Source: an uncultured Planctomycetaceae bacterium (GTDB lineage: Bacteria > Planctomycetota > Planctomycetia > Isosphaerales > Isosphaeraceae). From it: DNA of 64,000 nucleotides. The translations under genes and the position numbers were made by a program. A model generated the notes under the pieces. The model did not search any database and had not been told where the DNA came from. It saw only the letters and a program-made list of their open reading frames with translations. Below are positions 10,220 through 64,000 of the stretch, piece after piece (the stretch's first letter is position 1; each line of letters begins with the position of its first letter). The stretch covers positions 2,208,001-2,272,000 of the forward strand of contig CAWIAD010000002.1 of the NCBI GenBank assembly GCA_963833985.1. Reading direction: 5' to 3'.

Positions 10220-10546
10220 ACGTCCCGATGGAGAAACGCTCGCGGTTCTCGATCTTCGTGCGATCAGGCGCGACGGAACCGCCCCTCACACCAGGGACTT
10301 GCCGCAGAAGGTTCCGGCGGCACTCTCTAATCATATGATAGGAAACCGGTGCCGTCAAGTTCGTCGGGGGACAACGGAAATCGGCACAGGTCGAGAGCCC
10401 GAGAGACTGGTCCGATTGCCGGACAACGTCTCACTTCGGGTGTGAAGTCTTTTCCAGCCGCGTTCCTTGCTCCGCGCCGGCTCGTCGGTGATCATGTACG
10501 TGTTGCGTACGCCGAGTCATGCGTTCAGCCCCGCGGAGGAGTGCCC

Positions 10547-13016
10547 GTGGCCAGCCTGACGACCGAGGAAAGCCTCAAGCCCTACGAGGCGGAGTTCCGG
10601 TTCGCGGATCGCGATTATTATGATCGCCACCTGGTTTTCGACCATGCCGTCAGCGCTGAGCAGGCCGACCAGCGGCAGCGGTTCGAGGCGATGGCGCGTT
10701 CGCTGCGCGACCTGCTCACCCAGCGCTGGCTGCTGACGCAATCGGTGCATCAGCGGACGAACCCCAAGCAGGTCTATTACCTGTCGATGGAGTTCCTCAT
10801 GGGCCGCACGCTCCAGAGCGCGGTGACGAATTTGCAGGTCCAGTCGTTCGTCGACGAGGACCTGCGCTCCGACCCGCATCAGGAGTGGCACCAGCTTCAG
10901 GACGCCGAGCCCGACGCCGGGCTGGGCAACGGCGGCCTGGGGCGGCTTGCGGCGTGCTTCCTGGACTCGCTGGCCACGCTCAAGATCCCCGCCATCGGCT
11001 ACGGCCTGCGCTACCAGTACGGCATGTTCCGCCAGGAGATCAAGAACGGCTACCAGGTGGAGCAGCCCGACAACTGGCTGCTCCATCCCGACCCCTGGGA
11101 AGTGGCACGGATGAACGAGACGGTCGACGTGCCGCTGAACTGCTCATTCCGGCTCGAGGGCGGGATGATCGAGGAGATTCCCCGCCAGCCGATTCATTTG
11201 CTGGGTGTGCCTTACGATCGTCCGGTCGTGGGCTATGGCGGCAAGACGATCAACACGCTGCGGCTCTGGAACGCCTCGTCGCCTGACTACTTCGATTTCG
11301 GCGAGTTCTCCGGGGGCGAGTTCTTCGGCGCGGTGCTGGACAAGACGGTCGCCGAATCGCTGACCCGCGTGCTTTACCCGGACGACTCGACCCCGCGCGG
11401 CCGGTCGTTGCGTTTCTTGCAGGAGTACTTCCTGGTTGCCTGCTCGATCGGGGATATCATCCGCCGGTTCCGCAGCCGCGGCAACGACTGGCCGGCCCTT
11501 GCCGACAAGGTCGCCATTCAGCTCAACGATACGCACCCCGCGATGGCCGTCGCGGAGCTCATGCGGGTGCTGCTGGACGAGGCGAAGCTGAGCTGGGACG
11601 AAGCCTGGAAGCTGACCGTCGGCACGCTCGCCTACACGAACCACACGCTGCTCCCCGAGGCACTCGAGAAGTGGCCGATCGAGCTCTTCGAGCTGTTCAT
11701 CCCCCGCCACCTGGAAATCATCTACGAGGTCAACGCGCGATTCTTGCGTGATGTCAGCGCACGGTTTCCGGGGGACGACGCCCGCGCCCGGCGAATGAGC
11801 CTGATCGAGGAGACGCCGCACCGCCAGGTGCGCATGGCGAACCTGGCCATCGTGGGAACCCACAGCACCAACGGCGTGGCCGAGATCCACAGCCGGCTGC
11901 TGCGCGAGCACACCGTGGCCGACTTCGCCCGCATGTTTCCGGAGCGCTTCAACAACAAGACCAACGGCGTGACGCCCCGGCGCTGGCTCTTGATGGCGAA
12001 TCCCGACCTGTCCGCCCTGCTCACCGAGGCCGCCGGCGATGGCTGGGTCACGGACCTTGACCGCCTCGCCGTGCTCCGGAAGCTGGCCCGTGATCAGGGT
12101 TTCCAGGACCGCTTCCGTCAGGCCAAGCAATCCGCGAAGTCACGGTTCGCGGACTGGGCGAAGCGAGAGCTGGGCATCAGCCTGGATGAATCATCCATCT
12201 TCGACAGCCAGATCAAGCGCATTCACGAGTACAAGCGGCAGTTGCTCAATGTCCTGCACATCATGGTGATTTATCACCGGTTGCGCATGGACCCGGGTTT
12301 CGACCCCGCGCCGCGGACCTTCTTCTTCGCCGGGAAGGCCGCACCGGCCTATCACCTGGCCAAGCTGATCATCAAGCTGATCAACGACGTGGCAGTGGCC
12401 ATCGACGCGGACGCGCGGGTGCGCGGCCGGCTCAAGGTGGTGTTCCTGCCCAACTACGGTGTCAGCCTGGCCGAGCGGCTGATTCCGGCGAGCGAGGTCT
12501 CCGAGCAGATCTCCACGGCCGGTTACGAGGCCAGCGGCACCAGCAACATGAAGCTCATGATGAACGGCGCCCTCACCATGGGCACGCGCGACGGCGCAAC
12601 CATCGAGATTGCCGAGGCGGTCGGCGAGGAGAACACCTTCCTCTTCGGCCTGACCGCCGAAGAGGTCGCCGGCAGCCGCTCCTGGTACAGCCCTTACTGG
12701 CATTATGATCATGAATCGGAAACGCGCGCGGCGGTTGACCTGCTGTTCAGCGACCACATCAATTCGGGACCGGCTGGACTCTACGAGCCCATCCGCCAGG
12801 CGCTGCTGTCCAGTGGAGATCACTACATGCACCTGGCAGACCTGAAGAGCTACACCCAGGCCCAGGAACGCCTGGCTGCACTGTACCGCCAGGACCCCAA
12901 GGAATGGACCGCGCGGGCCATCCTCAATGTCGCCGGCAGTGGACGCTTCTCGGCCGACCGTACCATCAGCGAGTATGCGCGAGATCTGGCACTCGCGCGC
13001 GTGCCCGGTGCCCTGA
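10547..13016 (+). CDS. glgP: Glycogen/alpha-glucan phosphorylase (frameshift ~12980, probably an assembly error)
   Basis: GLGNGGLGRLAACFLDS, IQLNDTHP, KRIHEYKRQLLN, EASGTSNMK PLP motif. The typical C-terminus EIWHSRACPVP* is in a shifted frame ending at TGA 13014-13016. Confidence 0.93.
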
Positions 13017-13078
13017 CGGGCGCTCCGCTGAAACGTCGTCCATGCCCCCCGAAATCCAGAGGATCAACCCGCCGTCAC

Positions 13079-14877
13079 ATGCCCCGATCCCGGAAGACTC
13101 TCGAACTCAAGCGCACAGTGCGGCTGGCCGCACTGGGTGCCGGCGTCGCGGTGAGCCTGGCTTTGCTGGCGGGTCTCTGCTTCTGGCTGGAGGACCACCT
13201 GCCTCGTACCGTGCTCTGGCGCCTCAAGCTCGCCGGCCTGCTTGCGCTCGAGCTCGGGTACGGCGTCCTGGTAGCGACCCTCTGTCTGGCGGCTCCGGTG
13301 CTGGCAGTCCTCCTCTACCGGGGACGCAAACAGCCGGGCCCGCGGCCGTCCTGGGCGCGCGTTCTGCTTCTGGCCGCGTCGTTACTGGTCTGTCTTGTCC
13401 TGGCGGAGGGGGCGTCGGCCGTCTGGTGGCAGCGCACGCACCAGAGGGCGGCCTTGCCGATTGGCGGGCTGAGGCGGCCGTACGGAACCAGGAAAGCGTT
13501 TCAGCTCCCCGCAGCGCCGGAACAGATTGCAATGCCGTTGAGCTTTCCTGACTCCACGAAGGACGTGGTGAACCTGGTCATGGTGGGTGAGTCGAGCGCG
13601 GAGGGTGTTCCGTATGACTGGTGGCTGTCCATCGCCACGATGGTCCGCTGGCAACTGGAGGAATTGTTTCCTGGCAGGAGATTCCAGTACCACCTCGTCG
13701 CAACCGCCGGTGATACGCTCGAGGCCCAGCACGCGCGGCTGGCGGAGCTGAAAGTCCGCCCGGACGTGCTCATCGTTTACGCGGGGCACAACGAATTCAC
13801 GGCTCGATTCCCCTGGTCACGCGAGATCAGCCACTATGATGACGGCAAGCTGCCGGGGCGCTCGAACTCATGGTTCAGCAGGCCGAGACGCGCTCGTCGT
13901 TCTGCCGGCTTGTTCGAGAGGGCATCGACAAGTGCCGGGTGGCGCTGCCGCCCCCGCCGGGAGCGAATCGCAGTCTGGTGGATGAGCCGGCCTTCAGCCC
14001 CGCGGAGCTGCACATCCTGCGGAACGACTTCGAGCGGCGCCTGGAGTCCATCGTGAGCTTTGCGCGGCGCGTCGGTGCCGTGCCCATCCTGATCTTGCCT
14101 CCGGGGAACGATTCCGGTTTTGATCCGAATCGCTCGTATCTCCCCTCGAAGACGACGCGGGCCGAGCGGGAGGCCTTCGCCGCACGCTTCCTGGCGGCTC
14201 GGAAGCTCGAGGAAAGCGATCCTGCCGGCAGCCTGACGCGTTATCAGGCCCTGATCGATGAGCAACCCGGATTCGCCGAGCTGCACTACCGGCTGGCGCG
14301 GCTGCATGAACGCTCCGGACACTGGGATCAAGCCTACCATGAAGACGTCGCGGCGCGTGACCTCGACGGACTTCCGGAGCGCTGCCCGACGCCATTTCAG
14401 GAAGCCTACCGCACGGTGGCCAGGCGGCATCACTGCGCGTTGATCGACGGGCAATCGTATTTCCATAAGATCGGATTCCACGGTCTCCTGGACGATCATC
14501 TGTTTCATGACGCGGTCCATCCCTCGCTGCGCGGTCAAATTGCCCTGGCTCAGGCTGTGCTCGTGGCCCTGCAAAAAAGCGAGGCGTTCCAGTGGCCGGA
14601 CGCGCGATCCGTGAGGGTCATCGATCCCGCGCAGTGCGCCAGGCACTTCGGACTGACCTCCTGGTCTTGGCAGAAGATCTGCAACTTTGGGATCATGTTT
14701 TATGATGTGACCTCCGGGGCGCGATACGACCCGGGCGAACGGCTGGCGAAGCGACAGGCATTCGGCGCTGCGCTCGAGCGAATCGCGGCCGGTGCGGATC
14801 CCGGGGCGGTCGGGCTGCCAAATATCGGCCTGCCCGAGCCGGTTCCCCTGGTGCCCGAAGACGTGGTGATTCCCTGA
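13079..14877 (+). CDS. Membrane-anchored SGNH/GDSL-like protein with TPR-like segment (frameshift in G run ~13855)
   Basis: Three N-terminal hydrophobic helices; VGESSAEG, YAGHNE and DAVHP SGNH-block motifs are split across two frames that join if one G is added. Confidence 0.65.
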
Positions 14878-17775: not shown

Positions 17776-20673
17776 ATGAGCCGGTCTCGGTATATCGTCG
17801 GCATTGATCTGGGGACGACCAACTGCGCGGTGGCGTATGTTGACACCAAGGGGCGCGAGCGGCCGGCGGCGGAGATCCGCATGTTCGACGTTCCGCAACT
17901 GGTGGCGGCGGGCGAATCGGCACCGCGGAGCATGCTGCCGTCATTCCTTTACCTGGCCGGCGGGCCGGAGCTGCCGCCGGGTGCAGCGCGGCTGCCCTGG
18001 GGCGACGGCGGCAACCGGATCGTCGGCGAGTTCGCGCGGATCCAGGGCGCCCGCGTGCCCGGCCGCCTGGTGCACAGCGCCAAGAGCTGGCTCTGCCATC
18101 CGGGCGTGGACCGCGAGGCCGACATCCTCCCCTGGGCGCGGGGCCGGAGATCCAGCGCGTCTCGCCCGTCGAGGCGTCGGCGGCCTACCTGCGGCACATC
18201 CGCGACGCCTGGAACCACAGCTTTGCCCTGGACGACCCGGCGCGCCGCCTGGAACAGCAAGAGGTCATCCTCACCGTGCCGGCCTCGTTCGATGAAGCGG
18301 TGCGCGAGCTGACCATCCTGGCCGCGAAGCAGGCCGACCTGAATTCGATCACGCTGCTGGAGGAGCCGCAGGCGGCGTTCTACTGCTGGATCGTCTCGCA
18401 CCAGGACCGCTGGCAGCGCGAGGTGCGGGCCGGCGAGCTCATCCTCGTCTGCGATATCGGCGGCGGCACCACCGACTTCAGCCTGATCACCGTGGTCGAG
18501 ACCCTCACCGGGCCGGGATTCCGCCGCGTGGCCGTGGGCGATCATCTCATGCTCGGCGGCGATAATATCGACCTGGCACTGGCGCACCAGGTGGAGACAA
18601 AACTGGGTGGCGTGCGGCTCGATACCGAGCAGTGGAGTGCCTTGCGCTTCGCCTGCCGGACGGCCAAGGAGAAGCTGCTCGTCGCGCAGCAGCCACTGCT
18701 CGAGCGCTGGCCCGTCACGATCGCCGGGCGCGGGTCGCGGATCATCGGCGGCAGCATCCAGTCGGAGCTGACGCGGCAGGACGTGCAGTCGATCGCGCTG
18801 GACGGGTTCTTCCCCCGGATTGGCCGCAGCGAGGAGCCGCAGCGCGGGGCGAAAACGGGGTTCCAGGAGTTTGGCCTCCCGTTCGTGGCCGACCCGGCCG
18901 TGCCCAGGCACCTGGCCGCCTTCCTGCGCCGGCACCGCTCCGAGGCGATCGGCCAGGGAGGCCACCAGAGCAACGACCGGCCGGCCCGGCCCGACGCGAT
19001 CCTCTTCAACGGCGGTGCACTCACGCCGGAGAGCGTGCGCAACCGGATCGTCGAGGTGGTGGCCTCGTGGTTCGGCGACGATCCGGGTCCGGCGTACTCC
19101 CCGCGCGTGCTCTCGAATTTTTCGCTGGACCTGGCCGTGGCCCAGGGCGCCGCGTACTACGGCGTGGTGCGCAGGGGCGGGGGAATCCGCATTGGGGGCG
19201 GTACGGCGCGTTCGTTCTACGTGGGGCTGGAGACGGGACAGGACGCCAGGCCATGGATGTGCGTGGTACCGCGTGATGCCCAGGAGGGCGACGAGACCAC
19301 GATCGACGGCCACGATTTCGACCTGCTCATGGGCCAGCCGGTGCTCTTCCCGCTGGCCAGCAGCTCGGTGCGGCCCGACGATCGGCCCGGGGACCTGGTC
19401 GCCGCCGACCCGGATTCCATTCGCGAGCTGCCTCCCTTGCAGAGCCTCATGAGGGTGGGCCGCAAGGCCAGGGCGGAGCGCGTGCCGGTGAGCCTGGTGG
19501 CACGAGTGACCGAGGTGGGTACCATCGAGCTCTGGTGCCAGTCGCGTACCGACACCCGCCGCTGGCGCTTGCAAATCCAGCTTCGAGGGCCGTCCGCCCA
19601 ACCCCAGCCGCGGACGACTGTCGCCGGAGTGGAGACCGACCGGGTGATCATCGAGCAATCCGAGCTCGATACGGCCATCGCCGCGATCCGCGATGCGTTC
19701 GCCGCACCGGCCTCGGCGGCTGGGTCCGAGACCGGTCCGGCCCGATTGATCAAGCGGCTCGAAGAGCTGATCGACGTTCCGCGCGACCAGTGGCCGCCCG
19801 CAGCCCTGCGCGCCTGGTGGGAGCCCGTGCGCGACGCGGCCGACCAGCGGCTGAAGAGCCCGCAGCACGAATCGCGCTGGTTCAACCTGGCCGGCTTCGC
19901 CTTGCGGCCCGGCCGCGGCTTCCCGCTTGACGAGATCCGCCTCAAGGCGCTCTGGCCGGTGTTTCACCAGGGAGTGAAGCACACCAGGGACGTGCAGTGC
20001 TGGGCCGAGTGGTGGATCCTCTGGCGGCGCGTGGCGGCCGGCCTGAGCCGCCAGCATCACGACGAGATCCATCGTCGCCTCGCCCCGTTCGTGGTGCCGG
20101 CGAAAGGCACCAGCCCGTCGAAGAAAGCCGGCCGGCCCAAGCCCGAGCCGCACGAGCTTGCAGAAATGTGGCGCTGCGCCGCCAGCCTGGAGCGGCTGGC
20201 GCCGGAGGTCAAGGAGGGATTGGGCAGCTCGCTGGCCAAGGAGCTGTCCCGGCCTTCCATTCCGAACTATCTGCTCTGGTGCCTGGGCCGGCTGGGCGCC
20301 CGCGTGCCGCTCTATGGACTGGCCAACACCGTGGTCCGACGCGAGGCCGCCGAGCGCTGGGTCGACGCGCTCCTCTCCCGCACGTTCGCCCCTGGCCGTG
20401 AGACCAGCGACGCGATCTTCGCCCTCTCTCAGCTTGCCCGCTCTTCCGGCGACCGTGCCCGCGATCTGCCGGAGGAGCTGCGCCAGCCGCGTCTTGAGCC
20501 GTCTCGAAGCACTGGGCGCCGACGAGTCCATTCTCCGCCCCGTCCGCGAATACCACGAGCTGGAAGCCGCACAGGAGAGCATCGCCCTGGGCGACGCGCT
20601 GCCGATCGGGCTGCGGCTGCGGGAGGAAAGTCCGCAACTCTCGCCGGCTGCGGATGCAGAGCCAGGAAAGTAA
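17776..20673 (+). CDS. Hsp70-family protein with extended C-terminal (DUF3731-like) domain; frameshifts ~18135 and ~20488
   Basis: VGIDLGTTNC, TVPASFD, LLEEPQAA, CDIGGGTTDFS, LGGDNID. Three ORF pieces join through single-base indels. Confidence 0.85.
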
Positions 20674-20830
20674 GTCTGGCCGACCGGAGCCAGGCTGCGT
20701 ACGCCCTTGACGTAGTGAGTCCCGACACCTGAAACTTGGGGCAACTTCTAATCTTGCCCGTGACCACTATCAACGCGTCGTGTCGATCTGGAGAAGAAGC
20801 AACTCTCTCACTCACCGGGACGAAACGGCC

Positions 20831-21455
20831 ATGACGACGATCGCACACCCCCCAGCCACCTTGATGTTGCCGCCGGGATTGACGCCTTACCGTCTCAGCG
20901 TCGACCAGTACGAGGCAATGGCTGAGGCCGGGATTTTGACCGAGCGCGACCGGATCGAGCTGATTGAAGGGCTGCTGGTAAGGAAAATGACCAGGAAACC
21001 CGACCACTCCACGGGCTCGGAGAAGTGCCGTCGAAGAATCGATCAGGCGCTGCCGCCCGGCTGGCACACGCGCCAGCAACAACCCATCCGCATCCCTCTG
21101 CGCAACAGTGAGCCTGAACCCGACATCGCCGTGGCTCGGGGCGACCTTGACGATTACGACACCGAGCACCCTGGTCCCGCCGACATCGCCCTCGTCGTCG
21201 AGGTCGCCCACTTCGAGCCTCCTTGCCGACCGGGCCCTCGCGAGAACCTACGGCGGAGGTGGCATTCCCACCTACTGGATCGTCAACCCGATCGACCGGC
21301 AGCTCGAGGTCTACGCGAACCCGACCGGCGGCGGCTATCCCGATCCCACCATGCTCGCCGAATCCGCGGCCGTCGAGCTGATCGTTGCCGGTGAGGTTGT
21401 CGCCCAGATCCCCGTTGTCGATCTCCTTCCTCGTAAGCCGAAGAAAGCCCTCTGA
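20831..21455 (+). CDS. Uma2 (DUF820) family endonuclease-fold protein; frameshift ~21210
   Basis: RLSVDQYEAM..GIL...RIELIEG, SEPEPDIAV, LVVEVA and, in the shifted frame, YGGGGIPTYWIVN. Confidence 0.85.
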
Positions 21456-21489
21456 GCATGGCCGGAAATTCACGCCGCTTGCTGTGATC

Positions 21490-21527
21490 GGCCTTGCGAT
21501 AGCAAATGGACAAAAAACCAACGCTCC
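21490..21527 (+). repeat. Left terminal inverted repeat (38 bp)
   Basis: GGCCTTGCGATAGCAAATGGACAAAAAACCAACGCTCC, preceded by TGATC. Confidence 0.85.
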
Positions 21528-21542
21528 GTCTATCTAAATGGC

Positions 21543-21916
21543 TCATAATTTGATGGAACGCAGCAGGTTCTTGCCGGCCCATCGATCGACTGGCAACTGA
21601 TGCCGGCCGTCCGGATTGATATGCTCGTACCTCGCCGGGGAGAGGTGCGCCAGGTCCTCGGGATCGATCCGCTGCCCCTTGGCCCTCGATCGGTCGATCA
21701 CCGCCCCCATGTAGACCGTGTTCCAGACGATCACGGCGTTGGTCACCAGGTTCAGGCAGCTCGCCTGGTTCGGCTGGCGTCATCGGTGCACCAATTGACC
21801 TGGGCCTTGTCCGCCTTCGTGAGGGTGTAGAAGGTGACCAGGTCCTCCCGGGGGACCTGCGGTGGATATCCAGCCAGCCGTTTCCGTTCGGCTTCGTTGA
21901 AGATCTGCCCCGGCAT
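21543..21916 (-). pseudogene. tnpA: Tn3-family transposase with large internal deletion
   Basis: N-terminus MPGQIFNEAERKRLAGYPPQVPREDLVTFYTLTKAD is joined out of frame (~21775) to the conserved C-terminus NQASCLNLVTNAVIVWNTVYM...LAHLSPARYEHINP. Confidence 0.85.
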
Positions 21917-21935
21917 GAGCTGGCACCCCCCGCCG

Positions 21936-22463
21936 TCACCACTTCCGCTCGAACTCCTCCTGGATGTGGGAGTCGGTGAAGTTGAGGTAGATGGCGGTCG
22001 TCTGGAGCCGGTCGTGGCCGAGGATCTTCTGGACGGTGGCCAGGCTTATGCCTTTCTCCAGGGCAGTCGCGGCGAAGGTGTGGCGGAGGACGTGCGGGGT
22101 CACGTCCTTGGCGAGGCCCGCCCGGTTGGCGACCTCCTTGATCAGCCCCTGGGCCCGCCGCGGCCGGACGGGGAAGTCCTTGCGAAGGGTGAAGTGATGC
22201 TCCAGCAGGCCGCGTAAGCGGCCGGACATGGGCACGACGCGGACCTTGGACTTCTTGCCGTAGGGGCCGCCCTTGCCCCGGACCCTGAGCTGACGTTGCT
22301 GCCAGAGGACATCCTTGGTGGTCAGGGCGCACAGCTCGTTAACGCGGAGGCCAGTGTCGAGCAGGGTCCAGACGATGAGGTGCTCGGTGGGCGTCTCGCA
22401 GGCGTTGGCAAGGATGTCGGCCTCCTCGGCGGTGAGGGGCTGGCGGACGTACTGGTAGGGCAT
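21936..22463 (-). CDS. Minimal tyrosine recombinase (catalytic domain only), probable cointegrate resolvase
   Basis: TGLRVNE (R), GKG (K), HVLRH, LGH and TTAIY catalytic residues; 175 aa. Confidence 0.92.
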   Translation of the reverse strand: MPYQYVRQPLTAEEADILANACETPTEHLIVWTLLDTGLRVNELCALTTKDVLWQQRQLRVRGKGGPYGKKSKVRVVPMSGRLRGLLEHHFTLRKDFPVRPRRAQGLIKEVANRAGLAKDVTPHVLRHTFAATALEKGISLATVQKILGHDRLQTTAIYLNFTDSHIQEEFERKW

Positions 22464-22490
22464 TGCTCCCCCCGAACCGTGCGCTTATAG

Positions 22491-22523
22491 TCACGGAAAG
22501 CGCAAAGATTGCGCCTTCCGCGA
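22491..22523. promoter_or_regulatory. Palindrome upstream of the recombinase, candidate binding/resolution site
   Basis: TCACGGAAAGCGCAA-aga-TTGCGCCTTCCGCGA (15-bp arms, 2 mismatches); ATTGCGCCTT recurs at ~22620. Confidence 0.5.
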
Positions 22524-22813
22524 TTCAGCCTACTCCGGCTGCATGGGGCGGAAAAGGGGCAGATGCCTGAGAAATTTTGGCTCCGGGCATATCGGGCTCG
22601 ATGGGGCACGCGGGGCCCGATTGCGCCTTTTTACGCGGAACGCGCGCACCGGGACCCTTCAGAAAGCCATCGCCTTCCTCGTTACTCTTGCGGTTGGGGA
22701 TAATGTCCGGTGGGTGGAACCATGGCGGCTTCGACCCACAGATCCTTGGGAAAAGCGGGACCGGGACCGGGTCGCCACCGCGGGGCTCCTGATTATATCG
22801 GGGACTGAGAGCT

Positions 22814-25800
22814 ATGGCGAATCGCTTCGATGCGTTCCTATCGCATGCCTCTTCCGATAAGCCCCTCATCGAGGAACTGGCCAGGCGCTGGAGCGCGAGA
22901 ATCTGAAACCATGGCTTGACAAGTGGAATCTGATTCCCGGCATGCCCTGGATGCCCGAGCTCGAGGCTGCCCTGAATTCCTGCGCCTCCGGCGTTGTGTT
23001 CATCGGGGCCGGGGGCTTCGGCCCCTGGCAGAACGAGGAGATGCGGACGGCCATCACCCGCCGCGTCGACGAGAGCCGGGCCGGGGCTCCCGGCGATGGC
23101 CGGCCGTTCCGCGTGATTCCGGTGCTCCTGCCTGGGGCCGGCCGGCCGGAGCGTAGCCAGCTGCCTGCATTCCTGGTCGCGACGACCTGGGTGGAGTTCC
23201 GCGACTCGCTCGACGACCCCGAGGCATTCCACCGGCTGGTTTGCGGGATCCGAGGCATCGAGCCGGCCGCCGGCCCCGGCGGGGCTGTGTTCGAGGGCCG
23301 GTGCCCTTATCGCGGCCTCGAGTTATTCGATGTGGAACACGCACCGCTCTTCTTCGGCCGAGAAGCGCTCACGGAGTGGTTGCTCGACAACCTCAAGCGC
23401 CAGCCGTCCGGCAGGGAGAGTCGGTTCCTGGCGATTGTTGGTGCCTCGGGAAGTGGCAAGTCGTCGGTGGTGCGCGCGGGATTGCTCGCTGCCCTCAAGA
23501 ACGGCAAGCTCGAAGGCAGTGAGGCGTGGCCGCGGGCGGTTTGCCGGCCAGGGGCGGAGCCGTTCTTCAACCTGGCGAAAGCACTCACCGGCTTGGCGCA
23601 GGAATCCGTGAGCGCCGTGGTCTTCGATCGGTTGCAGGGCCGCAAGGACGGTGAGCGGTCTCTGCACGTTGCCGCTGGCCTGGTCCTGGGCGAGCCTCCT
23701 CGCGGTGAGCGGCTGGTTTTGCTGGTAGATCAGTTCGAGGAGATCTTCACGCTTTGCAACGATGAAGCGGAACGCCGCGACTTCATCGCCAACCTCTTGC
23801 ATGCGGCGACGGTGGCCGGCGGTCGCGCCATCGTCGTCGTGACGATGCGGGCCGACTTCTACCATCGCTGTGCCGTTCACAACGATCTGGCCGCCGCTCT
23901 GTCGGATCATCAGGTACTGATCGGACCGATGACCGACGACGAGCTGCGGCGGGCCATCGAGCGGCCTGCGCGGCTGGCCGGCCTGGAACCGGAGGCGGGA
24001 CTCGTCGAACTGCTGCTGGATGACATCCGGGGCCGTGTCGGGGCCTTGCCGCTGCTGCAGTTCGCGCTTCAAGAGGTGTGGCGTCGTCGTGAAGATTATC
24101 GTCTGACCGTCCATACTTATCGTGAGATTGGTCAGCTCGAAGGAGCGCTTCAGCGCAAGGCAGACGCGGTTTACGGCAGGTTCACGCCTGAGCAGCAAGA
24201 ACTTTGCCGTCGTGTCTTCTTGAGGTTGGTTCATCCGGGCGAGGGGAGCGAGGACACGCGCCGGCGGGCCACGCTGCGCGAACTCTTGCCGAGCGACCCC
24301 GCGCAGGCCGCGGCGGTGCAGTCGATCATCGACCGGCTGGCCGATCCGGAATCGCGGCTCTTGACGACCGAGCGGCAAAAGACGGCCGCGGGCGAGGCAA
24401 CGGCCGAGGTCGCCCACGAAGCCTTGATTCGCGGCTGGCCGTTGCTGCGGAAGTGGATCGAGGCCGACCGCGACGGGTTGAAGCTCCAGCGGCGGCTGAC
24501 CGAGGCCGCGACGGGTTGGTTGTTGCACGATCGGGAGAGCAGCTTCCTGTACACCGGCATCCCGCTGGCACAGGCGCGAGAGTGGTTGAAGACGAACCCC
24601 GATGCGCTCAACACGGTGGAGACGCAGTTCCTCAATGCGAGCATGAGGCGGCGGCGCAGGGCCAAGGTCGCGCGACTCGGGGCCATCGCCGCGATCGTCG
24701 GCCTCGCTTTCCTGGGCTGGGAGGGGCTGCGCCTGCAACAACAGGCCCAGTTCGCCTCTTTATCGAAGCTGACCAACGACGACGTGCAAGAAGCCCGAAA
24801 ACTCTCACTCCAGTCCAAGTGGGGCGAGGCGATCACTGTGCTGGAGGGGGCCGAGAAACGGCTCGGGATTGGCGGCAGGTACGAGGAACTGCGTTCCCAG
24901 GTGGAACGTCCTCTGAGTACGTACAAGGCGAAGCAACAGGAGCATGACTCGGAGGTGCGCGACAAGACAATGATCGCGGCCCTCGAAGAGGCGCACACGT
25001 TGCTTGCTGAGAATACAAGATCAGGCGGTTTGCCGTCAGAACCCGATCTCAAGGTCTTGATTCCCGGCTATCGACAGGCACTTCGCGATGGAGGGATCGA
25101 CATTGACAACCTTCCTGACGAACGGGTCATCGAGTTGATCGGGGCCAAGCCGCCGCGGGCCCGTGAGATCGTGGCCGCGGCGCTCGACGATTGGGCCAGG
25201 GCCCTCGATGGAGCAGAGCAAGAGCGCTTTCGCCGGATTGCCCGAACCTCGGACCCCGATCCGTACCGCAGCGCCATCCGCGACGCTTGCCTGAGCCACA
25301 ATCTTGCCGCCCTGAAGAAGCTGGCAAACGATCCCGAGTTAACCAAGCAGCCCGCGTTCACGCTCAATCGGTTGTGTGAATCGCTGTTTGAAGAAGGCGG
25401 CGACAAGGAGTCGATACCGTTACTGCGCCGGGCCCAGGTCCTTCACCCCCGCGACTTCTGGATCACGGCAAGCCTCGCCGCGCGCCTATGCTGGGTCTCT
25501 CCCCCCCAGCCAAACGACGCCATTCGCTTTGCAACGGCCGCCGTCGCGCTCCGACCTGAGATTCCCAGCGTTCATCGCCGCCTGGCGGTCGCTCTCATCA
25601 GGTGTGGCCGCATCAACGACGCGCGCATTGCGCTCCAGGAAGCCTTTCGGCTGAATCCCAAAGACCCCTTTGCCTACAGCACGCAGGGTTGGATCTGGGC
25701 GGCGGAAAAGAATTTCGAGAAGGCCCTCGCCAACTATGACAAGGCCATAGCCCTCAACCCGAGCTACGGACTCTACAAGAGCCGCGGCGATACGTGGATT

Positions 25801-27036
25801 GACGCGGGTGATTACGGTAGGGGGCTCGCGGACTTCGACACAGCGCTCCGCATCAATCCCCAGGATGGAGGTTCGCATATGGGGCGCGGTCGGGCTCTAG
25901 GGTTCGCAAAACGATTTCCTGAGGCAATCAAGGCGTATGACGAGGCGATCAAGCTCAGCCCCCGAGACCCGTTTGCCTACCACAACCGCGGTCTGGCGCA
26001 CCTGAACCTGGGGGAAGAGCACAACGATAGGGCCGTTGCCGATTTCACCAAGGCACTGGAACTGTTTCCGCAATTTGGCGATCCCTACGCGCATCGTGCG
26101 GAAATATGGCTACGACACCGAGACGAAAAGAGCGCGCTAGACGACTTCGACCGTGCCATCAAGTATGGGGTCAGCTACGAGTTTGCTTACAACCGACGCG
26201 GGTCGATTCGGCACCGGAACGGCTACCTCCAGGGTGCGATCGCGGATTACACCAAGGCAATCGAGATCAACCCACGATCTGCATCCGCGTACCATGATCG
26301 TGGTCGGGCCTGGACGGAAATCGGCGATTTTGACAAGGCCATGAAAGACTACGACAAGGCCATCGAACTGAGTGGAACGTTCGCCACTGCATGGGGCAAT
26401 CGAGGTCGAGTGAAGAGATTGAAGGGAGATTACGCCGGCGCTCTCGCTGACTTCAACGAGGCGATCCGGCTCAATCCTCGCTACGCCTGGGCTTTCGCGG
26501 GTCGCGCGGCGGTATGGATCAAGAAAAAGGAATTTGACAAGGCCATCAACGATTACGACCAGGCAATCCGGCTCGACCCGAGTCGAGAGCTCGCCTGGGC
26601 TCACAGCGAACGAGGGTACGCGCGAAATTCCCTGCGTCAGTACGACAAGGCGTTCGCCGATTATGACGAAGCGATTCGACTCAACGATAAACTGGCCGAT
26701 CCCTACAACCGACGCGCCTGGATCCGGGCCACTTGCCCGGACTCGAAATGCCGTGATGGCAAGAAGGCCGTCGAGTCAGCCACCCGCGCCTGTGAGCTGA
26801 CGGCGTGGAAGAACGCCGAGTTCCTCACCACGCTCGCCGCGGCCTGCGCAGAGGCCGGAGACTTCGCCGGCGCGATGAAGTGGGAAGAGAAGGCCATCGG
26901 GCTGCCCGCGAAAGGCGAGCCCCGGCGCACGACCTTCGATTCCCGCATGGCGCTCTTCGAGGCCAAGAAACCATATCGCGAAGAGCCGGACGTCGGTAAT
27001 TCCCGAGGAAACGCAATCCAGGCTGCGCGGCCGTGA
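22814..27036 (+). CDS. TIR domain + nSTAND1-type NTPase + TM helix + multi-TPR protein (1-bp frameshift ~22887)
   Basis: MANRFDAFLSHASSDK..WLDKWNLIPG..GPWQNEE (TIR); CPYRGL..FFGRE, GASGSGKSS, LLVDQFEEIF, ALPLLQFAL, EVAHEAL (STAND); LGAIAAIVGLAFLGW (TM); about ten TPRs. Confidence 0.88.
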
Positions 27037-27145
27037 TTGCCCACGACGACGGGTCGTCCGGAATCCCCTCGACGCGATGTCAACCCAAAATCAAGAAGTG
27101 CGTCTTTCTGGGCCCGAAGCGCACACCTGAACCGGCGCTCACTAC

Positions 27146-27182
27146 CGAGCGTCGGTTTTTGTCCGTTTACTATCCCTAGCCC
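27146..27182 (-). repeat. Right terminal inverted repeat (37 bp)
   Basis: Reverse complement GGGCTAGGGATAGTAAACGGACAAAAACCGACGCTCG; followed on the + strand by TGATC. Confidence 0.85.
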
Positions 27183-27223
27183 TGATCGGCCGGCTGTGCC
27201 GAGGCGCATTGCCTCGTGATCGA

Positions 27224-63853: not shown

Positions 63854-64000
63854 AGAATTGGCTTGGTATTCTGTTACCTCGGAATCGTTTGGGCGCGCGT
63901 CACGGCCTGATGAATGACCAGGGGATGAGTGGATCGTCACCACTTCCGTTCAAACTCTTGATGGATGTGCAGATCCGCGATTGTTGAGATGGATCGCCGC

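Follow-up and report, generated by a model that had tools for sequence, protein, structure and literature searches.

Can a bacterial STAND ATPase be switched by a sensor that lies on the far side of a membrane? The question is raised by a gene at positions 22814–27036 (forward strand) of a 64,000-nt stretch of DNA from an uncultured Planctomycetaceae bacterium (contig CAWIAD010000002.1, positions 2,208,001–2,272,000; hereafter, the window). Its product joins a TIR domain, an nSTAND1 ATPase, a candidate membrane helix and an array of tetratricopeptide repeats (TPRs). The catalytic motifs are intact, the tail is homologous to that of planctomycete receptor kinases, tails have been swapped among relatives, and the gene is carried by a Tn3-family transposon. 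We put the probability at roughly 55% that the protein is a single-pass trans-membrane conflict receptor: a ligand outside the membrane would bring the ATPases together, and this clustering would activate the TIR domain to cleave NAD+.

The ATG at 22814 opens MANRFDAFLSHASSDK, the start of the TIR domain, but this frame is lost after about 24 codons, and the long open frame runs from 22861 to the stop codon at 27034–27036. DNA alignments against the TIR genes of two relatives (G008 and G030) place a single-base gap at ~22886; read through as X, the protein has 1,407 residues. The same point is read straight through, intact, in 16 listed homologues. P0002, 79% identical to the query over residues 1–900, is whole, and the G008 protein (locus L036, a same-genus genome) starts as does P0012, which NCBI labels Isosphaeraceae, suggesting that the host is a planctomycete belonging to this family. 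Besides the gap, no second lesion was found across the 4.2 kb of the gene. It is the sole full nSTAND1 gene found in the genome (10.16 Mb, 2 contigs, 96% complete), and no forward sigma-70-like promoter was found upstream of it.

The TIR domain (22814–23259, forward strand) matched TIR_2 at 48.8 bits (cut-off 28), a score obtained on the part downstream of the frameshift. In its WQNEE motif, the second Glu (23038–23040) aligns with the Glu of AbTIR, 7uxr and Cat1; in AbTIR, we take this Glu of the W-x-x-x-E motif to be the catalytic residue. The Trp and the second Glu were invariant in 78 of 78 aligned homologues. A single-sequence search of solved structures gave no match for the domain, and a profile of 16 TIR sequences matched solved bacterial TIR NADases (AbTIR, 8g83 and 7uwg; 7uxr; Cat1, 9mud) with E-values of 2.5e-11 to 2.5e-9 and the W-x-x-x-E motif aligned. 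By profile match and Glu position, the domain is probably of the NAD-cleaving type; it differs from these enzymes in its fusion to an ATPase and a membrane helix. Unlike Thoeris or CBASS, the gene has no partner effector or cyclase gene in an operon with it and none among the nine window neighbours, and the transposon otherwise carries transposition genes only.

Behind it lie the nSTAND1 ATPase and the helices that follow it (23305–24645, forward strand), of which PF20703 covers 23305–24540 with 426.6 bits (cut-off 27.1; E = 1.8e-127). Walker A (GASGSGKS, at 23440), Walker B (DQFEE, Asp at 23728) and the downstream Arg/GxP-type motifs, by which we judged family membership, are all intact, and the GKSS of Walker A and the D..EE of Walker B were invariant in 78 of 78 homologue rows. 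A single-sequence search of solved structures with the ATPase returned only a chance Walker A match.

Whether the chain crosses a membrane turns on a short segment after the ATPase. A basic stretch, RRRRR-AK, opens with RRRRR at 24646–24660 and leads into a predicted single membrane helix, N-in/C-out (24646–24720 in all, forward strand), whose hydrophobic core (24676–24720) is just 15 residues long. With a Kyte-Doolittle value of 1.73 over a 19-residue window it is the highest in the protein, the next best being 1.56 in a soluble segment; taken alone, the helix is marginal. We set it against its homologues. A search with the TIR-nSTAND1 head scored 8,000 candidates and gave 2,863 hits, of which the best 120 were listed. 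In these 120, where the head carries many tail types, we called a helix within 200 residues after the ATPase by a hydropathy filter of our own, run with controls. Of the TPR-tailed proteins 32 of 34 had it, as did 41 of 44 with WD40 tails (73 of 78 pooled), both with FGE tails, the single LRR-tailed and the single penicillin-binding-protein-tailed protein, and 23 of 29 with unannotated tails. Histidine-kinase, PAS/GAF and SpoIIE tails need the cytoplasm to function, and only one of the nine proteins that end in them had the helix. As background, the filter fired in 7 of 349 windows within the soluble head. One clade of 13 (support 99) holds both states, with seven kinase-tailed members lacking the helix and five WD40-tailed and one penicillin-binding-protein-tailed member possessing it, so ancestry alone does not account for the contrast.

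The flanking charge points the same way. Lys and Arg were richer on the N side of the helix in 90 of 101 proteins (6 versus 1 in the query). Among proteins of the same architecture, the helix was the least conserved part (identity 0.28, compared to 0.40–0.56 for the STAND end, linker core, TPRs and cap); it kept its hydrophobicity despite this variation and has a low hydrophobic moment. A second set, 90 tails taken from loci in genomes of many phyla and reduced to 84 after six repeats of the same gene or of P0012 were dropped, had the helix in 77, making STAND-helix-repeat the usual nSTAND1 layout. The seven without it were both histidine kinases of the set, four Nostocales WD40 proteins and one unannotated short tail. 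In our assessment the helix probably crosses the inner membrane, with the TIR and STAND domains predicted inside and the TPRs outside, in the periplasm.

What lies beyond the helix is related to receptor kinases. A helical linker of 210 residues (24733–25362, forward strand), which belongs to no Pfam family and is common to planctomycete Ser/Thr kinase-TPR proteins, precedes the repeats, the predicted periplasmic sensor (25363–26703, forward strand). Ten canonical TPRs aligned in register, and by eye about three degenerate repeats stand before them and a two-repeat cap after them; many TPR Pfam models match this tail. The C-terminal cap (26704–27036 with the stop codon, forward strand) has a cysteine pair, both members of which are kept in 13 of 14 cap-bearing rows and which could be a disulfide. 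The linker had no NCBIfam match, and the NCBIfam hits to the protein all fell below cut-off, save one short, generic TPR model of which no stretch passed; against the Atlas the linker had no hit at 0.9 (best score 0.84), and a whole-protein profile found only TPR proteins among the 60 matches listed from solved structures. When helix and linker were searched together (7,999 best candidates of 750–2,387 residues scored), 49 of the 51 other hits were Ser/Thr kinase-TPR proteins, as were five of six linker hits within this genome. Here the cap is also the C-terminus of a kinase, of an ECF-sigma-like protein and of a protein that starts with a signal-peptide-like leader, and five of six cap hits have an upstream hydrophobic segment (signal-peptide-like or membrane helix). 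Sequence comparison thus establishes the homology of helix, linker, TPR array and cap with those of planctomycete receptor Ser/Thr kinases, which the accessible part of PMC11032199 describes as predicted (DeepTMHMM) single-pass proteins with periplasmic TPR or WD40 arrays. The predicted orientation, N-in and C-out, is the same; the query has no protein kinase domain by Pfam and carries TIR and nSTAND1 in its place.

A quick tree of the ATPase, built from 62 chosen rows of the 120, placed the query and P0002 among WD40-tailed and other proteins 72–83% identical to them, apart from the other 18 proteins with this tail. Tail type changed 23 times on this tree (minimum 7, shuffled mean 35.9), so tails cluster by descent yet have been swapped often. 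Between the query and P0002, identity is 91% in the ATPase, 72% in the TIR domain and 69% in the TPRs, where positions 5, 6 and 12, the ligand-facing ones, are the least kept (0.40–0.45, versus 0.95–1.0 at positions 7 and 8), a pattern that any TPR array may show. The original prediction had described a real N-terminus at 22814 hidden by a 1-bp frameshift, a TIR domain with Glu at the expected catalytic position, an intact STAND NTPase, an RRRRR-flanked hydrophobic helix and about ten TPRs, and all of this was recovered. The topology it drew, with a cytoplasmic TIR and STAND and an outside TPR sensor, stays a prediction, now strengthened by the tail-dependent presence of the helix and the N-side Lys/Arg bias; the linker had been missed.

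Several tails seen along the way deserve record. P0043, P0045, P0065, P0070, P0079, P0095, P0105, P0114 and P0027 join TIR-nSTAND1 (or nSTAND1) to histidine kinase, PAS/GAF, receiver or SpoIIE domains with no membrane helix; L041 and L087 are likewise helix-free (TIR-)nSTAND1 proteins joined to such signalling domains, an odd conflict/two-component join. P0085 has a penicillin-binding-protein transpeptidase tail after the helix, P0076, P0080 and P0082 have an unannotated tail that by eye resembles a solute-binding domain, and P0052, P0061 and P0063 have glycine-rich five-helix membrane tails. Two Ser/Thr kinase-TPR genes of 98% identity (G000 C1:443407–447459 and C2:4093839–4097886) differ mainly in clusters within the kinase half, their TPR halves being near-identical, a pattern that may reflect a recent duplication or gene conversion.

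A non-autonomous Tn3-family transposon of 5,693 bp (21490–27182), also absent from the original prediction, carries the TIR-nSTAND1 gene as its sole cargo. A TGATC direct repeat of 5 bp (21485–21489 and 27183–27187) flanks the element, whose imperfect terminal inverted repeats lie at 21490–21527 (forward strand; the same end of an intact element begins GGGG) and 27146–27182 (reverse strand). By itself this inverted repeat ranks 6th of 776 pairs; it carries weight only together with the target duplication, the remnant of the transposase and the intact relative. The remnant (approximately 21560–21919, reverse strand) retains the start and end of the gene, about 2.56 kb having been deleted near 21771–21777, and residues 327–388 of DDE_Tnp_Tn3 matched at 21603–21788 (E = 1.5e-17). 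Beside it, a 175-aa tyrosine recombinase (21936–22463, reverse strand; PF00589, E = 1e-28), whose counterpart precedes tnpA in G003, is likely the element's resolvase. The corresponding end in G003 (G003:C248), at 81–83% DNA identity, carries this recombinase and an intact transposase of 980 aa; the contig stops before any cargo. Terminal inverted repeats, a 5-bp target duplication and DDE_Tnp_Tn3 beside a tyrosine recombinase are the features of Tn3-family elements with a tyrosine-recombinase resolvase, presumably the Tn4430/TnpI type, from which this one differs in its internally deleted transposase and its TIR-STAND cargo. The recombinase is not a regular neighbour of TIR-nSTAND1 genes (two weak hits in the loci scanned, besides the window's own copy). 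Miniature elements of 434–437 bp bounded by both inverted repeats of this family occur in two other same-genus genomes (L139:4572–5005 and L146:598–1034), and single similar element ends occur at G000 C1:2758865 and C2:3816216.

How much of this was already known? The STAND-helix-repeat layout is catalogued and common, not rare. In the available parts of Kaur et al. 2021 (PMC8195603), nSTAND1 is defined in predicted counter-invader and conflict systems, and our protein is a member by Pfam score. Its Figure 2-source data 1 has nSTAND1 with a transmembrane segment (TM) 461 times, nSTAND1+TM+TPR 23 times and TIR+nSTAND1+TM 16 times, the last with beta-propeller and beta-helix tails; strings, some almost identical to the architecture described here, include TIR+nSTAND1+TM+BetaPropeller and Trypsin+nSTAND1+TM+TPR, and the exact string TIR+nSTAND1+TM+TPR occurs 0 times in the source data (12 of 13 supplementary files). 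Section 7 of that paper, in the text available, treats FGS tails and not membrane crossing, and we met neither a kinase-derived tail nor transposon carriage there. Seven supplements of PMC13581612 gave no match to the layout, and the accessible portions of PMC7159879, 10.1101/2020.01.06.895854 and 10.64898/2025.12.03.692087 had nothing on it; the literature searched, with most subscription papers outside reach, yielded no functional work on an nSTAND1 or TIR-STAND protein that spans the membrane. Multi-helix NACHTs have been proposed to sense intramembrane or periplasmic signals (10.1101/2022.07.19.500537), and periplasmic NACHT/CLec targets have been predicted (10.1101/2023.09.22.558884), in the sections of these sources open to us.

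With Avs/AVAST and bNACHT proteins (PMC13581612 and 10.1101/2022.07.19.500537, as far as available), the query shares the effector-STAND-TPR order and a catalytic-type effector. It is, however, of a different STAND family by profile, and its sensor is predicted outside, whereas tested Avs proteins sense proteins inside the cell. The Avs profiles of PADLOC 2023 gave no match, the only hits in that library being Walker A matches to mad3/mad8; Avs7–21 are newer than it. Avs/AVAST membership was accordingly rejected, both for the lack of a PADLOC 2023 Avs profile match and for the helix predicted between ATPase and sensor; the earlier contrast with soluble Avs proteins is upheld as a prediction.

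A working model follows for the trans-membrane conflict receptor. One protein of ~1,407 residues, likely intact in the cell, would cross the inner membrane once, with the TIR domain and nSTAND1 ATPase inside and the kinase-type linker-TPR module in the periplasm. Binding of an outside ligand to the TPRs (candidates are phage ejection proteins, rivals' toxins, predators or envelope damage) would cluster the receptors; the ATPase would then oligomerise with an ADP/ATP switch, as expected for the STAND family, and the TIR domains would meet and, as in their own family, cleave NAD+ or make a nucleotide signal, leading to growth arrest. With a membrane predicted to lie between sensor and ATPase, the sensor could not inhibit the ATPase by direct contact, as it does in soluble STANDs, and control would have to come from clustering or from a push transmitted by the helix. 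The mobility of the gene as Tn3 cargo and its patchy distribution speak in part for this reading: a match of any kind turned up in 16 of 61 related genomes and in 6 of the 13 from the same genus, many of these genomes being incomplete.

In the portions of the literature available to us, the bacterial STAND receptors tested so far detect phage proteins within the cell, and their sensor is packed against the ATPase. A STAND switched across the membrane would have to be activated in some other way, and it would bring the periplasm under surveillance. More tentatively, and with considerable doubt, we suggest a one-chain hybrid of NLR and Toll, in which an NLR-type ATPase and an NAD-destroying TIR domain took over the periplasmic ectodomain of a receptor kinase, spread on transposons and detect invaders still in the periplasm, ahead of their entry into the cytoplasm. 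On this view, trans-membrane immune receptors with interchangeable sensors on the outside would be a large bacterial class that takes in most nSTAND1 proteins. The protein also shows that receptor kinases and conflict ATPases exchange parts, and it would be a compact, partner-free example with an easy NAD+ read-out, and its family offers ready controls, the same head with outside or cytoplasmic tails. Since the layout is already catalogued, the surprise is limited; what the locus adds is tail-dependent helix presence as a topology test, a kinase-derived ectodomain and transposon carriage.

A number of observations weigh against a trans-membrane conflict receptor. The membrane call comes from our own filter applied to a 15-residue core, with helix counts that overstate independence because the homologue sets are related. 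No Avs or other defence model matches the protein beyond Walker A, and every Avs trigger in the accessible part of PMC13581612 (Lee 2026) is detected intracellularly. The frameshift, too, may be genuine. Fusion of the head to histidine kinase, PAS/GAF and SpoIIE domains points to ordinary signalling, as does the L037 relative, which by inspection lies beside a kinase and a sigma-factor-like gene. The neighbours of other recombinase copies are not defence genes, those of related planctomycete loci (n = 43) are mostly not, other hits there looking generic, and the nine window neighbours gave a single weak candidate-system hit (PDC-S29, 7 kb away) amid housekeeping and stress genes. A defence-island reading of the window was rejected on that count, and a specifically anti-phage role was not supported, given no PADLOC Avs hit, no defence island and a tail from signalling kinases.

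Plain signalling is a serious rival, if an unlikely one. It keeps the topology and makes the protein a non-lethal receptor, in which the head of TIR and ATPase took the place of an ordinary planctomycete receptor's kinase and the TIR domain makes a second messenger or docks a partner for development or stress regulation. A tail found also on Ser/Thr kinases and on an ECF-sigma-like protein encoded in this genome, a head also joined to cytoplasmic signalling domains and a window that is not a defence island would all fit; an invariant NADase-type Glu, a stand-alone gene with no partner on its transposon, fast tail swapping with patchy spread, and the definition of nSTAND1 in predicted counter-invader systems (PMC8195603, parts available) would not. 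We consider it improbable that the helix fails to cross and serves as an in-plane anchor or part of a soluble stalk, leaving a cytoplasmic Avs-like TIR-STAND-TPR protein. The core is short (hydropathy 1.73, versus 1.56 in a soluble segment), the four helix-free Nostocales nSTAND1-WD40 proteins show that soluble forms exist, and a stricter filter missed two of the six linker-bearing proteins of this genome; yet helix presence tracks whether the tail needs the cytoplasm, with a positive-inside bias, hydrophobicity is kept while sequence varies, and the cap also occurs behind signal-peptide-like leaders.

The gene could also be broken: a toxic cargo gene on a decaying transposon would have lost its TIR domain, and what is left would be a pseudogene or else a protein without TIR that starts at the ATG at 22942. 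Carriage on a decayed element, with its transposase deleted, gives this some room, and no read covers the site: a read check at 22886 found one run with 0.05 of words, whose contigs were mostly <90% alike, and none listed bridged the position. The assembly itself, however, contains other frame switches. From 155 filtered open genes in 400 kb of a 99%-complete relative, searched against this genome, 133 had hits and 77 passed an orthologue filter; 16 of these 77 contained a frame switch, with 17 switches in 96 kb (0.18 per kb), a rate at which a gene of 4.2 kb has a 53% chance of containing one or more. The twin kinase genes of this genome, 98% alike, likewise differ in length by one inserted base, and neither a further lesion in the gene nor any break in P0002 speaks for decay. 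Based on the frame-switch rate and the intact close homologues, the 1-base frameshift is probably an assembly artefact, and a truly broken gene unlikely.

Elsewhere in the window, a Uma2 (PF05685) gene directly left of the transposon insertion (20780–21455, forward strand) is frameshift-split, and L037 too has a Uma2-like gene close to its TIR-nSTAND1 gene. A glycogen phosphorylase gene (10349–14877, forward strand) runs into the next gene and an Hsp70-like gene (17776–20732, forward strand) is split, which look like further single-base assembly errors. A fragment that begins at 63935 and continues past the end of the window at 64000 (forward strand) resembles the end of the element's recombinase gene (75% similarity). 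Two related loci have defence-type neighbours, a point in favour of the conflict-receptor reading. In L053 (6134–12635, an Isosphaeraceae metagenome-assembled genome), a TIR gene, an nSTAND1-helix-WD40 gene and a gene for a CBASS-type patatin phospholipase (E = 3.6e-91) stand in a row, a possible three-gene system, with no cyclase hit among the neighbours scanned; in L091 (6275–13931, Paludisphaera soli), a TIR-nSTAND1 gene is followed by one for a ThsB-like protein (PADLOC, E = 9.9e-53).

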